Source: Octopus vulgaris
Lineage: Eukaryota
Length of the DNA: 64,000 nucleotides
Assembly: GCA_951406725.2 (NCBI GenBank)
Contig: OX597832.1
Span: 26,412,001-26,476,000, forward strand
Reading direction: 5' to 3'
Part shown: one piece after another, positions 1 to 44,378 of the stretch
Numbering within the stretch: position 1 is the stretch's first letter
Layout of the letters: the number at the start of each line of letters is the position of its first letter
Notes under the pieces: model-generated
What the model saw: only the letters and a program-made list of their open reading frames with translations
What the model was told of the DNA's origin: nothing
Databases searched by the model: none
Program-made: the position numbers and the translations under genes

Positions 1-339
1 TGTGCAAAGGGAAATAACTCTGAGTGGTCAGTGACATGCAGCTGAGCAACAAAGATGAATAAAGGTATATTAAATAACATACAAGACAAACTGATGATTT
101 ATCAAAATTAGCTTCACTTCAAGAGAAGGTAAACCAATCACCTGTGGCAACTGGTATCAACTCTTAATGAGAAGGGGAGATAATCTCAAGAGTGAAGAAG
201 ACAATGGAATAGTTGTGGATACATGTTTCTACCTAAAAAGCTGTCATCAGTAGATGAAACACTTAGACAGAGGCAAAAAAGAATAGAATACACTAATGAC
301 CAAACTAATTTGCATAAATGAAATTCAGCTAAGAGAAAT

Positions 340-377
<38 letters not shown>

Positions 378-562
378 AGTCACCGAATTCATGGGACCTG
401 AACTACCAATGGAGGCTTAAATATTCTCACCTCAAATCTTTTTTTTTTTAAATTTAAATCTGTCAAATTTTCTCCAATTTGGCTCCATACACCTAAGGAT
501 GTGGCCATGTCAACACCAACGAAACTTTAAGTAAGTTAGTGTTGTGCCAATCTAGTAATATG

Positions 563-611
<49 letters not shown>

Positions 612-619
612 CATACACA

Positions 620-677
<58 letters not shown>

Positions 678-1544
678 CACACTTGAAACCCCAACTAATG
701 TATTGAGTGCTACTTTCATTTACTCAACAACACACACATCATCATCATCATCGGACATTAAACAATGATGATGATGAATGTGTGTATATATGTGTGTGTG
801 TATATATATATGCATGTGTGTATGTATGTGTATATATGTATATGTGTGTGTGTGTGTGTGTATAAATATGTGTGTATGTATGTATGTATATTCTCCCCAA
901 GATGCCCAGCAGTACAAATAGTCTGCCTCTAAATACCCATCTCAAAAAACTAAGGAGCGATAGAACATGAAACGAAGAACATGCAGTTCTATGTTTCTGC
1001 AGATATTTGATCTGATAACTTTTAGACACAAGAACTCAAGAAATTCTACATTCAAATGTATACGCTCATGTGCAAGAATTATGTTTATGGTTTATCTCCA
1101 TGTAAATCAATAAATTTTAAATTTATTGATTAACATTTCATTTCTTTCTATTAATTCTGAAAGCAAAAACAAAAATCTTTGTAGCTTAAATGTCTATTTT
1201 TACTAAAAACAATTTTCAATTTATAGACATATGCAAATTAGTTGTTTGTTTTTTGGGGGAGTTTTTTGGTGGGGGACAGTAGGGGAGGATTACATTGGAA
1301 GCAACTTTGCTTAAATTTTATCAAAAGCATAGTCACAGAACTTTAATAAATATGCCATCCATCCAAGAACTGCAATGAAATTAAGTATAAAATTGTATAC
1401 TTATTACAGAGATGTACTTGCAAAGCAAGTGACCTGATCTAAGATCATGTGCTGGAACGAAAACAATTGCAGCGTGGAAGGTGTTTATAAGCCATTTAAG
1501 AAACACAAAAACTGTTAGATTCACTTCAACATTTAAATTTAATT

Positions 1545-1591
1545 TGGCAAAATATTTTCATCACTTTGAGACCGCGACCTGTTCACTGACA
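1545..1591 (-). ncRNA. Mirror copy of the G3-C8 hammerhead-like motif
   Basis: Reverse complement reads TGTCA GTGAACA g GTCGC ggtctcaaa GTGAT GAA AATATT T TGCCA, with one stem I mismatch. Confidence 0.55.
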
Positions 1592-1639
1592 AAATTTCTG
1601 TGCTGCACAGAATTTTGTCAGAGATGCAGCACAGAATTC

Positions 1640-1686
1640 TGTCAGTGAACAGGTCGCGGTCTCAAAGCGATGAAAATATTTTGACA
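1640..1686 (+). ncRNA. Minimal type I hammerhead-like motif with G3-C8 covariant core
   Basis: TGTCA GTGAACA g GTCGC ggtctcaaa GCGAT GAA AATATT T TGACA: stem I, core, stem II, GAAA, palindromic stem III, stem I'. Confidence 0.6.
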
Positions 1687-1733
1687 AATTAAATTTAAAT
1701 GTTGAAGTGAATCTAACGGTTTTTGTGTGTTTC

Positions 1734-1963
1734 TTAATCCTTTTGTTACCAACCCGGCCGAAACCGCCTCTGGCTCTGTAGTACAAATGTCTTGTTTTCA
1801 TAAGTATCAAATTAAAGTTTTCCACCAAACCTTAATCACAATTTATGTTCCTAACACTAGCTGAATGATAACTAAGTTATTTTACTAAATTCTTTGTTAT
1901 ATTTAAAATCAATTGAAAGAAACACAGAGCATCTCAAAATAAATACAGTAACTAAAGGGTTAA
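1734..1963 (+). mobile_element. piggyBac-type MITE (about 225 bp)
   Basis: TTAA on both flanks; TIRs related to CCCTTTCGTTAC/GTAACGAAAGGG. Same family as the copies at 25.5-26.2 kb and 43.6-44.4 kb. Confidence 0.85.
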
Positions 1964-2139
1964 ATGGCTTATAAACACCTTCCACGCTGCAATTGTATAC
2001 TTTTTATAAATGAGAATGAGAGAGAGAAATTATGAAGTTACACCAGTCAAACGCTCATGGAGATACACAGGAAAAAACAACCGAAGCAACATGTCCACAA
2101 GGAACTGAAGCTGGACCAAAGACTCAACTCACCGAGAAT

Positions 2140-2171
<32 letters not shown>

Positions 2172-2288
2172 TCATCTCACAGTTAATACTGACATCAACA
2201 TAAGAATCCTTCAATGGACTCCAACAATTTTATTTAGATTTAAACATAACAGCAACACAAGCATCTCGTGGATTACTGCAATACTTAC

Positions 2289-5200
2289 ACTCGCTTGTTT
2301 CAGCTTCTCTTCTTCTTTGACAGTCTTAATATCGGAACTCAGACATTCTACTTGTTCTCTCAGTGCACTTATTGTCGATTCCAAGTTAGATACTTGTTCA
2401 GTCTTGGAACTTTCCAATTTCTGGATTTCCCCTTCGTAGCAGGAAACTTTATCTGACAGTTCTGCTATGGTTCCATTAAGCTTAGACAGTTTTTCCTCAT
2501 ACTCGCAACGAAGACTCTCAGACTTAGAAATTTCATTATTAAGATCTTCCTTTACATTTCTCACAGAATTCGTTTCTTCTTCAACAAGGCATTGGTTCTC
2601 TGTCAGCTGTTGTTTCAAAGAATCTCTTTCATTCTCTAATGTAGTGATTAGTTGTGATTTTTCTTCTAACAAAATTTCTTTCTTTTCAAGTAATTCTTTG
2701 AAATCTTTCAGGGAACTTGCCGTTGATTCCAAGTTAGATACTTGTTCAGTTTTGGAACTTTCCAATTTCTGGATTTCCCCTTCATAGCAGGAAACTTTAT
2801 CTGACAGTTCTACTATGGTTCCATTAAGCTGAGACAGTTTTTCCTCATATTCACTACAAAGACTTTCAGACTTAGAAATTTCATTATTAAGATCTTCCTT
2901 TACATTTCTCACAGAATTCGTTTCTTCTTCAACAAGGCATTGGTTCTCTGTCAGCTGTTGTTTCAAAGAATCTCTTTCATTTTCTAACGTAGTGATTAGC
3001 TGTGATTTTTCTTCTAACAGAATTTCTTTCTTTTCAAGTAATTCTTTGAAATTGTTTACTGATTCTTCTAAAGAGGCCGTCTTTGATATGCTTTCATTCA
3101 AAGAAGCTTCAAGTTCTTGCTGTTTCTTTTGATGTTCTTCCTCTCCGGTTAGATTCCTGTTTAACTGTTCCTTCAAAGACTCTTTCTCTTTTGTTTCTGT
3201 AGAAAGCTGGGTATTTAATTGTCCTATCGTTTCTGTATCTTCCCGTGTTTTCGCTTCCAAAGTTTCAAGACACGTCCTTAATTTGACCAGTTCCTCTTCG
3301 GAAGATACTTTAAGTTGTTCTTTAAATGTACAAAGTTCTTTCTGTTTAGATTCAAGTTCCGATAAGCAATCGTATTTTTCTTTTAAGACTTTCTTTAAAT
3401 CTTCCACAACCAAATTCTTTTCATCTACCAGTTTCTCTAAATGTTCGATCTCTTCATCAGCCACTTTCAATAATTCTATTTTCTCATTCAACTCTAAAGA
3501 AAGTTCGTCAAAAGATTTTCCCTTTTCGACAAGTTCCGATTGCAAAGAGTTCATTTCCTCACGTAACGCAGACGTCTGCTGGTCTGATGCCTGCTTAAGC
3601 TGTTCGAGTTTTTCACTGAAATCTTCAGACATTAATTTTTTCTCAGTTATCAATTCCTCTTGACTGGATTCCAGTTTTTTCCGTTCCGCATTCTCATTCT
3701 CAAATGCAGTTTGGACGAGTTGGAGGTTGTTCTTCAGTTGATCCAACGTTGAAAGCTGATTGGTTAAATAATCAATTCTTGCAGTGTGTTCTTCAAGATC
3801 TTTCTTCAGGCAATCGTTTTCTTTAACTACATTAGAATTTTCATCTCTCACAGAGCAAAGTTCAACCTGAATCTCTTCCATTTTCTTGTCTTTCTCCTGA
3901 AGTTCAAACTCAAATTTCTCCAAAATCTGCTTCGAATGACTATCAGAATCTTCAATGTTCCTCTTATTCATCTCAAAGAGTTTTAATTTTTCCCTCAATT
4001 CAACAAGTTCCTGTTTTTCCTGACTTAAACACTCCCGAGATTCCGCAGACTCTTGCACAGTTTTAATGAGTTTCTCTTTTTCTTCCATCAACACTTCCTT
4101 CTGCTGACAGGCAAGGGTTAATTTTTCTTCCAAGATAGAATTCAGACTGTGTTTCTCTTCCAAACTATTTACAAGTTCCATTTTCTCTTCAGTCACCAAA
4201 TTCAGTTGTTCTTCTAATTGCTGGAACGATTTTTTCAGTGCACAATTTTCAACTCTGTAATGATCGTTATCTGAATAAACCATTTTCATTTCTTCTGTTG
4301 CAGCATCGTGCATCTTACTGATAGTCTTCTGTAGCTCATCAATAATGCTCTGCTTCTCCAAGAGTCCCTCTTTCAACCTTGTCTGAGTCTCACTTTTCTC
4401 CACCCAAGCTTCTTCCAAAACCTGTTCTGATTTTTCATTTTCTAGCTTCATGTCATCATATTTCCGTTTCATTGAAGAAAGAGAATTTGACAATTCAATA
4501 ATTTTGGTCTCAAGTTCCTGAACATAACTACTTTTCTCCGACAGAGCTTTCTCTACATCTTCGATATATTCCTCTTTTATTTTACATTGATTCAATGCTT
4601 TTGATTTCTCTTTCTCAATTGCTTCACTTTCTTCCCTGCTTTTACGCAAAGATTCTTCAAGATGGTATATATTCTCAGTGGACTCTGCCATTTCTTTCTC
4701 TCTTCCTTTTAACACCTCCAATTCTTCTTGGGCAGCTGTCAAAGTTTCGGTGAGTTCCTCTTTGTCGCAGGACAATTTTTCGCTAAAAGCCTTCAGGTTC
4801 TTGTTCTCTTCCGACATTTCCTTCCCGTGGTCTTCCGCCAACTGCATCACAACTGTTATCGACTCTTTCTCTCTCTCCAGATTCTCCTTCTCCGCCTGAG
4901 TTCTCTGCAACACATTCTCAAAATGGGCCAACTCGGCTTCTAAACGACACTTCTCGTTAATTATTTCTTCCACTTTCTTCTTCATCCTGTTAATTTCATC
5001 AATGGAAGAACAGTCCTTCTCTGTCAATTTAAACATCTCCTCCCGTAGACTGTCCCTCTCGTTCAATGCTTCGTGCAAGGAATTCATCAGAAATTCCAGT
5101 TCGTTCCGCCAATGAAGTTCTCGCTGCTCTGTCTCCTCCAAATCAACCAGAGCCCTCTCCTTATCCTCCTTCATCATGTTCATTAAGTTTTCCCATTCTT

Positions 5201-6194
5201 TCAGCTGTTCGGTCTTGCTCAGCAACAGGGTCCTCTGAGATTCGGTCTCCTCCTTCAACTCGTGAAGCTCATACTCAATATTCTCCTTCTGTTCCAGCAA
5301 ATGTTCAAACATTGACTTCATTTTCGCATTCTCCGTGTGGAGATCTTCGACCTTCTGGTCGGCGCCGGTCAGAGAAATGTTAGAATCTGAGCCATTTTTA
5401 GAACATTCTGCATCAGTGGATTCTTTGACAGAGGATGATTCTAACATCGTGACCTTCTCTTTAAGATACCTTACCACTTCGGCAGAATCGGTATATTTTT
5501 GCAATAAGGAAGAATATTCTGCTTCTTTTTCCTGCAACTCAACTTTGAATGTTTCGGTATTTACTGCCGCTTCCTTTGCTTGCTTCAGTTCTTCAACCAC
5601 AATCTGAAGATCTGCTTTCAAAGCTGTTAACTGGTTTTCGAGATCATTTTTGTACTTTACCAAATTCTCACATTGGTCACTAACGCTGTGGTTTTCATGT
5701 TGGAGGTTTTCATTTGTTCCTTGGAGTTCTGCAATTCGGTTGGTGTAATCAAGAATTTTGTCTTCACCCTCTTGCAGTTTCGCTTCCTTTTCAGAGAGAT
5801 TCTTTCGTAAGACAGCAACTTCTTCTTCGTTTATCGAGGAATTTTCTTCTCTGGCCAGGTGATTCTGTTGTTTTAATTCATCAATCTGGTTTTTATATTC
5901 ACTTAACAGTTTACCAACATCAATTAATTCCACTTGGCTATTTGGCTCTACTTCATTCATCGACTGAATACTTTCAATTAACGAGTTCTTTTCAAGTTGA
6001 AATTTTTCTAAGATGGAAATCTTCTCTGTTAAACGATCTTTGGTAATTTGATAGTCATCCATGAGCTTCTCATAAGCAGCCTCTTTATGGTTCAAAGAAT
6101 CTACCATGACGACGTGGCTGTCTTCCAAGAGATTCAGTTTAACCATCGTTTCTTCTAATTTCTTCACAGCAGCGGCAGCAGCGGTTCTACTTGC
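2289..6194 (-). CDS. GCC2: GCC2 giant coiled-coil exon (1302 codons, ASRTAAAAAVKKLEE...KLKQAS)
   Basis: Lies inside ORF 2211..6365. Phase-0 acceptor ttattccag at 6195-6196; donor AGT|gtaagt at 2288. E/K/L-rich heptads throughout. The gene continues past the left edge of the window. Confidence 0.88.
2377..3052 (-). repeat. Tandem duplication inside the giant exon, period 348 nt (116 aa)
   Basis: 2377-2704 and 2725-3052 are near-identical; FKELLEKKEILLEEKSQL...TEQVSNLEST occurs twice. Confidence 0.95.
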
Positions 6195-6609
6195 CTGGAA
6201 TAAATCACAATCATATGACAACTTACCCCTGTAAAAGAGATATACATACATGTGTGTGTGTAGGTGTGTATGTGCACATATATCTATACGTGTGTGCATG
6301 TGTTGTGTGTGTACATGTTTATGTATGTATACACACGTCAATATGTTACAGCAGCTCTCTTTCAAGCAGACTGCACAGTTCGTATAATTTTTCTAACTTT
6401 TAGTGAAAACAAAGAGGGTAGAAATTATGACAAGAGAATAAAATACACTGATATACACACATACATGCATACATATATGCATATGTATATGTATACATAC
6501 ATACATATCTATGTATACATACATATCTATACATACATATATATGTATACTTAAATATGTATACATATATATATACATATGTATACATACATACATACAT
6601 GTATACTTA

Positions 6610-25548: not shown

Positions 25549-26183
25549 TTAACCCTTTCGTTACCAACCTGGCTGAAACTGGCTCTGGCTCTGAGTACAA
25601 ATGTCTTGTTTTTACAAGTTTTGAATTAAAATCTTCCACCAAACCTTAGTCACAATTTATGATAACCAAGTTATTTTACTAAATTCTTTGTTATATCTAA
25701 ACTTAATAGAAAGAAATACAGAACATCTCAAAATAAATACAATAATGAAAGGGTTAATACCACAACAAACTACTAGAGATAATTTATCACAAGATTATAA
25801 TAGGGGCTAGTTTATCAGTCAGTTGGTTCAGAAACAGTGGCCGTCAACCAGTTTTTACATAAAAAGACCCCTTTGATTCATATTTTGCTTAGGTGGACCC
25901 TTATAGCCATTTGATTTTTTAAAAATCCTCTATTACATATTATTAGGAATTGTTTAACCCTTTCGTTACCAACCCTGCTGAAACCATTTCTGGCTCTGTA
26001 GTACAAACGTCTTGTTTTCATAAGTTTTGAATTAAAATCTTCTATCAAACCTTAGTCAAAATTTATATTCCTAACACTAGTTGAATGATAACTAAGTTAT
26101 TTTACTAAATTCTTTGTTATATTTAAAATTAATTGAAAGAAACACAGAGCATCTCAAAATAAATACAGTAATGAAAGGGTTAA
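25549..26183 (+). mobile_element. Composite unit: piggyBac MITE - about 200 bp cargo - piggyBac MITE
   Basis: MITEs at about 25549-25756 and 25953-26183, each with TTAA/CCCTTT ends; cargo at 25757-25953. Confidence 0.85.
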
Positions 26184-26544
26184 ACATTTGTATGTCATGT
26201 CCTTGTGTGCTGTCTGCAACCAAAGCTGTAATTCAAGAATTTGGATATTATAACAATCAAGGAGTCTGCCCTTGAAGAAATTCGTTCTTATTGAATTGCC
26301 TGAAGGACTATAAGCAAGGAAATACATGGGGGTCCCTATATGCCCTTTTGGTGTAAATATCTAATTGTTAGGATGGTCACAATTAGACCCTCCTTACAAT
26401 TAGATGTTTAATGACCTAATTGTAAATATCTAATTAGATCTTTGTTCAACAGGGTTGGTCTATGACTCAAGTATAACAGCAACAATATATATAATCCTCA
26501 GTTAATCCTAAAACCATTATTATGTAAGTTAGATTATCTCATAC

Positions 26545-43070: not shown

Positions 43071-43603
43071 TTGGCTGTCAGCTTTGTACAAAGTCAACCT
43101 TTTCATAACCGTATTCCTCATGAAATACACTGTGTGAATTTCAATTAATTTTAAAAATAATGACCATCATCATCATCATCGCTTAACATCGGTTTTCCAT
43201 GCTGGCATGGGTTAGACAGTTTGACTGAGGACTGGCAAACCAGAAGGCTGCACCAGGTTCCAATCTGATCTACCAAAGTTTCTACAGCTTGATGCCCTTC
43301 CTAATGCCAACCACTGAGAGTATAGTGGGTGCTTTTTACATCCCACTGGCACAGGGAACCAGTGGCACATAACAAATTTGGAGGAATTTAACTGGTGTAA
43401 TCACTTGTGTATCAGAAAAATTGCTTTGTGACATCTGACTGCTTACATTCTGAGTTCAAATATCACCAGAGCCAACTTTCTCTTTCATCCTTTCAGGGTC
43501 AATAAATGAGTACCAGCTGAGTACCAGGGTCAATATAATTGACTTACCCCCATCCTCTTACCCTACAAATTCCTGGTCTTGTGCCAAAATTTGAAACAGT
43601 AAT

Positions 43604-44378
43604 TAACCCTTTCGTTACTGTATTTATTTTGAGATGCTCTCTGTTTCTTTCTATTAATTTTAAATATAACAAAGAATTTAGTAAAATAACTTAGTTATCA
43701 TTAAGCCAGAGTTAGGAACATATATTGTGACTAAGGTTTGGGGGAAGATTTTAATTCAAAACTTATGAAACAAGACATTTGTACTCAGAACCAGTTTCAG
43801 CCGGGTTGGTAACAAAAGGGTTAAACAATTTGTAATAATATTTAATGGAGGATTTTTTAAACCTCAAATAGCTATAAGGGTCCACCCTAGCAAAATAGGA
43901 ATTAAAGGGGTCTATATGTAAAAACTGGTTGATGGCCACTGTTTCTGAACTAACTGACCAACTGACGGATAAACTAGCCCCTATAATCTTGTGTTAAATT
44001 ATCTCTAGTAGTTTGTTGTGGTACTAACCCTTTTGTTTCCATATTTCTGTTGAGATGCTCTGAGTTTCCTTCAATTAATTTTAAATATAACAAAGAATTT
44101 AATAAAAAACTTAGTTATCATGAAGCTAGTGTTAGGAACATAAATTGTGACTAAGGTTTGGTGGAAGATTTTAATTCAAAACTTATGAAAACAAGACATT
44201 TGTATTCAGAACCAGAGCTGGTTTCAGCCGGGTCGGTAACAAAAGGGTTAAGCTAGTGTTAGGAACATGAATTGTGATTAAGGTTTGGTGGAAGATTTCA
44301 ATTCAAAACTTATGGAAACAAAACATTTGTACTACAGAGCCAGAGCCGGTTTCAACCAGGTTGGTAACAAAAGGGTTA
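43604..44378 (-). mobile_element. Second, inverted copy of the MITE-cargo-MITE composite plus a partial tandem MITE
   Basis: 43824-44024 is the reverse complement of 25757-25953. MITEs at 43604-43823 and 44025-44250; partial copy 44250-44378. Confidence 0.85.

Follow-up and report, generated by a model that had tools for sequence, protein, structure and literature searches.

Positions 1391-2002 of the window, the 64,000-nucleotide stretch of Octopus vulgaris DNA analysed here, are best explained, with a probability of about 70%, as a decayed pair of terminal-repeat copies from a Penelope-like retrotransposon, inserted head to head and carrying a hammerhead motif with a G3-C8 core that would likely cleave slowly, as a dimer, in transcripts of the source elements. 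This span is wider than 1545-1686, where a sequence-only reading had placed a pair of hammerhead-like motifs.

Anatomy of the insertion

The palindrome is a single insertion, composed of two 5'-truncated copies of a pseudo-LTR (pLTR) plus tail, of approximately 205 nt, within a 12-bp target-site duplication, whose left (1391-1402, forward strand) and right (1991-2002, forward strand) copies are identical. The long arm (1403-1607, reverse strand, ~205 nt) comprises the pLTR and a tail of ~58 nt of a Penelope-like element, and contains a hammerhead motif (1545-1591, reverse strand) with a G3-C8 core and damaged stems I and II. At the inversion junction we read a short extra fragment of the element 5' end (1608-1620, forward strand), followed by an inverted second pLTR copy, the short arm. 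The first part of this arm (1622-1737, forward strand) has 93.9% identity to the long arm and includes a minimal type I hammerhead motif (1640-1686, forward strand), with a G3-C8 core, an extra G between positions 9 and 10.1, a palindromic stem III and a predicted cut after 1681. Its second part (1962-1995, forward strand) is identical to the long arm at 37 of 37 positions, stops at the nearer of two 3' end points described below, and overlaps the target duplication with its last 5 bases. The two parts are split by a MITE-like repeat of 224 bp (1738-1961, unoriented), with imperfect 12-bp terminal inverted repeats and TTAA at 1734-1737 and 1962-1965, which was inserted later than the palindrome and which we take to be piggyBac-like. 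Five copies of this TTAA-flanked repeat of ~225 bp occur in the window, the others being located at 25549-25757, 25954-26184, 43603-43824 and 44025-44252.

An open frame of 1393 codons (2211-6392, reverse strand), of coiled-coil type and with a 116-codon internal duplication, is closed by a GTAAGT donor (2288-2283, reverse strand) and probably represents a single large exon belonging to a host gene; since this donor closes the frame, the palindrome was probably inserted within an intron. The window also holds, between 8488 and 63900, several dispersed SINE-like repeat families of 100-260 bp and numerous microsatellites.

The hammerhead motif in the two arms

In the right (short) arm, stem I is formed by TGTCA (1640-1644) and TGACA (1682-1686), the core GTGAACA occupies 1645-1651, with G3 at 1645 and C8 at 1650, and stem II is formed by GTCGC (1653-1657) and GCGAT (1667-1671), followed by GAAA from 1672, AATATT at 1675-1680 and U17 at 1681, all on the forward strand. 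The sequence-only reading had listed these elements for both arms. For the right arm the description is exact, apart from the extra G at 1652 that it lacked, whereas the left-arm motif (reverse strand; G3 at 1586, C8 at 1581, G12 at 1559 and U17 at 1550) has TGCCA instead of TGACA as the 3' strand of stem I, and GTGAT instead of GCGAT as that of stem II. Only the right arm is intact, and the two motifs lie on opposite strands. In the hammerhead fold the right arm has an energy of -4.1 kcal/mol and the left arm +4.5; two intact copies from the genome give -7.8 and -8.7. Position 11.1 is T in both window arms and C in 21 of the 29 best genomic copies, so the GCGAT of the window copy is a case of CpG-type decay.

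Intact copies have a 7-bp stem I, a 5-bp stem II, a G10.1-C11.1 pair and a palindromic stem III, and the minimal type I core (U4, G5, A6, N7, A9, G12, A13, A14, A15.1-U16.1 and an H17 that is not G) is present in 28-29 of the 29 copies at each position, with U at position 17 in all 29 best copies. The literal C3 and G8 of the canonical hammerhead are replaced by G3 and C8, which a CUGANGA descriptor cannot match; the family would indeed be missed by such searches, as had been proposed.

Our hammerhead descriptor matched once in the window and in none of 300 Markov-shuffled versions of it, and the reversed-pattern controls gave 0 matches in all seven genome pattern searches; the motif is therefore not a chance occurrence. 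With Rfam, no hammerhead was found at E<=10 in window positions 1-6000, only sub-threshold miRNA-hairpin matches, and none at the gathering score in five loci. This negative result is uninformative, because the C3-G8 and U3-A8 motifs of the same genome are missed as well. The miRNA-hairpin matches and the long, near-perfect palindrome would suit a foldback DNA transposon or a miRNA-like hairpin that resembles a hammerhead by coincidence, but this explanation has next to no probability left and is already largely refuted by the empty shuffles, by the other cores that escape Rfam, and by three features of the family detailed below: solo arms at 34 of 67 loci, unequal arms with a variable inversion point, and linkage to an ORF with reverse transcriptase (RT) and GIY-YIG domains.

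Genome-wide family and insertion layout

In the 2.8-Gb genome we obtained 3295 candidates for the long arm, the best-scoring 39 other places being full-length copies with 92-95% identity to it, and 1,645 exact 27-mer matches. Such family counts are inflated, as 30 of the 97 loci sampled on contig C1 represent one palindromic copy inside a larger repeat. Sampling of all 97 required that one of the arms have an intact motif. Amplification of a palindromic copy as a passenger within a larger repeat was observed at L032, L036, L037, L047-L049 and 25 more loci, with L032 containing two such units, inverted and 2.8 kb apart.

The 67 independent loci comprise 33 head-to-head and 34 solo insertions, and 31 of the 33 head-to-head loci pair a long with a short arm, having the tail at one end only. 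This tail, of ~58 nt, is longer than the published 30-40. Among 101 arms, 55 have their 3' end at 195-208 and 42 at 140-156, with four elsewhere, so that 97 end at one of two points, and 67 begin at one of the first 8 bases, placing them ~55-60 nt upstream of the predicted cut site; one arm starts at the predicted cut site itself, a weak measure because each locus had been chosen for an arm whose motif is intact. Of 68 long/short arm pairs elsewhere, 32 share a non-simple flank of at least 8 bases, as a raw count, most of the others lying in (TA)n, and the target duplications are in AT-rich DNA. An inverted 5'-truncated copy, a tail at one end and a (TA)n bias are described for Penelope-like elements in the relevant part of PMC8557442, and the two 3' ends match the two reverse-transcription start sites of such elements in that of PMC11167929.

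We propose that the element protein would nick AT-rich DNA on both strands and that reverse transcription would be primed at two internal RNA sites, as was shown in vitro for the anole element, which could yield a long arm with a tail and an inverted short arm without one. Rare alleles are common to both arms in most pairs, with one discordant case in 45 at position 74, so most pairs derive from one template. In L240 and in L257 the loop II subfamily differs between the two arms of the insertion, pointing to the use of two RNA templates in a single event.

Most copies measure ~150-205 nt and lack an ORF, and animal retrozymes have been proposed to derive from repeats of this kind (in part of bioRxiv 10.64898/2026.07.22.740005). 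A non-autonomous, retrozyme-like RNA, excised by tandem hammerheads, circularised and reinserted, is nevertheless highly improbable. All 67 independent loci are solo or inverted and none has head-to-tail tandem monomers, although a few partial local duplications occur (L004, L017, L022); the 67 arms starting ~55-60 nt upstream of the cut site also argue against it, and the longer copies extend into a GIY-YIG ORF and its 3' UTR, which is rich in microsatellites.

Linkage to an ORF with RT and GIY-YIG domains

Going upstream from the pLTR, the longer copies show a branch-point-like signal with a pyrimidine-rich stretch, then ~1 kb rich in microsatellites, and beyond it the C-terminal end of a GIY-YIG domain (E=0.005, below the Pfam cut-off). 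The pLTR lies on the same strand, ~1 kb behind this C-terminus, in L129, L202, L260 and L261, and an inverted arm is found 5' of the ORF in L129, L260, L123 and L070, so that L129 and L260 have the order inverted arm, ORF, pLTR; in L070 the inverted arm precedes an RT stretch of the same type. The search for the ORF end gave 357 candidates (79-85% identical), of which four were fetched, all broken; together with L129, L202 and L123 these make seven loci that include the ORF end and sufficient flanking sequence, four of which have a downstream pLTR, L123 an inverted arm only, and L258 and L259 neither. Broken ORF pieces adjoin the repeat in six loci, and no intact ORF of the G3-C8 family was present among the ORFs examined, all being broken. 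Nine longer relatives of the ORF were found, with full-length members of 871 and 889 aa, the latter (P0006) having RVT_1 and GIY-YIG Pfam matches that are both weak and below cut-off; the only named relative among the nine is an RT-domain protein of Octopus vulgaris. Since the pLTR is located ~1 kb behind the RT and GIY-YIG ORF in four loci, we assign the repeat, on sequence grounds, to a Penelope-like element (EN+). The layout of Penelope-like minimal type I hammerheads, recognised from the sequence alone, is thereby upheld in both the motif and the ORF linkage.

Other ORFs were considered as partners of the pLTR and rejected: the abundant Neptune-like element has a U3-A8 motif of its own, the ORF upstream in L195 belongs to a different family, with all 39 other best places stopping at query base 510, and the ORF of L203 is downstream of the pLTR and belongs to another family. 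The same-strand pair L031 has no ORF.

Directly before the dominant 5' end, the longer copies (L195:2945-2970, L202, L203 and L187) present the branch-point-like signal, the pyrimidine tract and CAG. This 3' splice-site-like signal resembles an initiator too, and either could fix the RNA 5' end.

Variation at the 3-8 core pair

Genome pattern searches with stem II fixed gave 5,742 motifs with G3 and a residue other than G at position 8, which is C8 in 98 of 100 among the matches listed. Of the 29 best full-length copies 28 have G3 and 27 have C8, with at least 26 keeping both. The expected multi-copy family with a G3-C8 core is therefore real, and its consensus keeps both the pair and the stems, without a change at 42 structured positions between subfamily sets. 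The mismatched G3·G8 was found in 195 copies, and C8 with a residue other than G3 in 199 (with a narrower loop range), where C3·C8 makes up ~15 of 100 among the matches listed; G3·G8 is thus approximately six times commoner than the reciprocal class, although part of this excess is a cluster on C16, possibly of duplicated copies. Fifty matches have both positions changed, and none of them is C3-G8 with the loop II of the family.

Four of ten two-arm loci carry G8 in both arms, which indicates that some templates with an unpaired core have transposed, and the other six are G/C discordant. The G8 arms are more diverged (4.8% versus 3.3%, p=0.07; versus 1.5% in the youngest set, p=3e-5) and G8 is present in all loop types. 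We rejected G3·G8 as an established ancestral intermediate, since with six of ten loci discordant and G8 in all loop types a relic and a recurrent change are inseparable.

An older subfamily, GUGACCA, has G3 in 47 of 56 matches and a different and variable loop II (two of the 56 look like young-family copies), and one of two fetched copies is homologous to the young family in the tail (score 65.5, versus a shuffle maximum of 56). G3-C8 has therefore persisted through changes affecting loop II and the free N7.

Other hammerhead families of the same genome have different cores. An intact, two-ORF element that we take to be Neptune-like from its CxxC linker has U3-A8. It is young and very abundant (L081-L086; 18,041 candidates), with overlapping ORF1 and RT-endonuclease frames and a hammerhead stem II of 2-3 bp. 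A C3-G8 family (156 matches) shares the helix I 5' strand and the extra G, has a compensatory stem II pair, and an imperfect stem I junction. In an old family whose stems are identical, most of the cores are not Watson-Crick pairs, with U·G in 26, C·A in 9, U-A in 4, C-G in 3 and A·A in 3 of 45 rows, of which 19 were chosen excluding G3 and C8 and 26 by similarity to a U·G copy, two duplicate rows being dropped. A Watson-Crick 3-8 pair is thus present in three of the four hammerhead families compared in the genome, each of a different type. The C3-G8 and U3·G8 families are related to each other outside the motif, whereas no homology outside the hammerhead was detected between either of them and the G3-C8 family; descent from them was therefore rejected, and the direction of the swap follows from the universal consensus only.

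Two further motifs were observed: at L016:2843, a minimal hammerhead-like motif whose core is U3-A8 and whose palindromic stem III has 8 bases, and a 223-bp tandem repeat at L111:1480-1785, whose units have a hammerhead-like motif with a C3·A8 core and which is possibly retrozyme-like. A metagenome scan gave four matches, none with helix I, which we attribute to chance.

Constraint, transcription and predicted activity

Substitutions between four subfamily sets affect 0 of 42 structured and 3 of 77 downstream positions, a difference that is not significant (p=0.55); the corresponding 6 of 9 in loop II is circular, as the sets are defined by loop II. Covariation of stems I and II inside the family, which the sequence-only reading had anticipated, was not found, the stems being invariant between the four sets; one compensatory stem II pair exists relative to the C3-G8 family, which is not detectably homologous outside the motif.

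The same element could also carry a vestigial hammerhead, with positions 3 and 8 drifting and the stems retained for protein binding or folding, or simply through the youth of the family. This would accommodate the transposition of G3·G8 templates, the U·G and C·A cores of the old sister family, the single arm of 101 beginning at the predicted cut site (weak, because of the arm selection), the non-significant selection signal, and the hammerhead mutants without effect on insertion in vitro (from part of PMC11167929). It is set against the retention of G3-C8 in two subfamilies, one young and the other much older, that differ at the free N7 and in loop II, and against the Watson-Crick pairs, each of another type, in three of the four families, and we consider it unlikely.

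Under the preferred reading of a slowly cleaving ribozyme, the hammerhead would need two RNA copies pairing via the AAUAUU palindrome, probably with protein help, and U17 would make the swap tolerable, an inhibitory G3-C17 pair being replaced by a weaker G3·U17 wobble. The sources, as far as the parts considered here go, report that minimal hammerheads of Penelope-like elements cleave weakly and only as dimers (PMC4209133), that C3G/G8C partly rescues a Penelope-type hammerhead with protein help (PMC11167929), that the activity of G3-C8 is lower in the presence of C17 than of G17 (PMC3884650, as data not shown), and that U17 is common in Penelope-like hammerhead motifs anyway (PMC4209133 supplement). 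From this published behaviour and from U17 we infer that the family hammerhead would likely self-cleave in source-element transcripts, slowly and depending on dimers and protein. Cleavage is not required for insertion in vitro, according to part of PMC11167929. In the minimum-energy fold, stem I continues through G3·U17 in place of the junction, and by itself the six-base palindrome has hardly any stability (-0.2 kcal/mol).

Minimal type I hammerheads had been noted to act as dimers, but the two arms in the window cannot do so in cis: any transcript has a single arm in the sense orientation, and pairing between the arms gives a hairpin of -165 kcal/mol, in which the motif would be sequestered. 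The window copy is thus predicted to be inactive and cleavage at this locus is unlikely; the locus is an ordinary dead copy and a poor test construct.

Three runs of raw RNA reads (~6% of each) contain 1608, 1216 and 1110 family reads in both directions, 83-87% of which continue into unrelated flanks, consistent with transcription of the family as a passenger. No pile of read ends was seen in the three runs, but fragmented cDNA libraries cannot reveal a cut. A search of a sequencing-run index listed no RNA run with the sequence.

Comparison with known hammerheads and significance

The octopus motifs resemble the minimal type I hammerheads found in Penelope-like pLTRs (PMC4209133, Cervera and de la Pena 2014, in the parts considered here) in their terminal-repeat location, the extra base between 9 and 10.1, G10.1-C11.1, the short palindromic stem III and the common U17, and in having mostly truncated, dispersed copies and opposite-strand pairs, and differ in their GUGAACA or GUGACCA core; the representative alignment of that paper contains, in the portion considered, CUGANGA, UUGANAA and one UUGAAGA, none being G3-C8. 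Natural compensatory changes at 3-8 are known as U3-A8 (in part of Perreault 2011, PMC3088659), including in Penelope-like elements of Schistosoma (PMC4209133), which makes the swap less surprising. U3-A8 requires two transitions, whereas G3-C8 requires two transversions and places a purine at position 3, with a competing pair to position 17. With the anole Poseidon element PAc (in part of Frangieh 2024, PMC11167929) the family has in common two 3' end points that define a tail (30-40 bp in PAc, ~58 here) and AT-rich targets; in PAc, however, G3-C8 is a laboratory mutant (C3G/G8C) that is partly active, and here it is natural. The octopus ORF represents a different lineage from PAc and is only 26% identical to the Neptune-like element of the same genome, over one RT stretch. 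Short non-coding copies with a type I hammerhead are shared with the non-LTR retrozymes of animals, unlike which the octopus copies have no tandem arrays and do not end at the cut site.

We did not find a natural G3-C8 core in the literature searched, including parts of the review PMC6765202 and of PMC6155905, a coverage that is incomplete and does not establish absence from print, and the main text of the 2026 octopus repeat annotation (PMC13282606) does not mention hammerheads or ribozymes. Natural U3-A8 and engineered G3-C8 rescue are already published, and what is new is a natural, high-copy G3-C8, of which prior notice is possible. Approximately 150,000 such hammerhead variants were reportedly counted by Lunse in 2017.

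Our broader proposal, tentative and to our mind somewhat short of an even chance, is that a long-lived lineage fixed G3-C8 as a third Watson-Crick solution of the core, with U17 as the enabling feature, and multiplied it into thousands of copies, giving an active natural ribozyme class that is invisible to CUGANGA and UUGANAA searches, with the G3·G8 copies as fossils of an unpaired intermediate. If true, this would be a natural high-copy case of a core swap found in print, in the sources considered, only as a laboratory rescue mutant; hammerhead descriptors should then allow every pair at 3-8, and elements reported without hammerheads would deserve a second search. One genome with G3-C8, G3·G8, C3-G8, U3-A8 and U3·G8 in similar scaffolds would also provide a panel for whether Penelope-like elements need their ribozyme.
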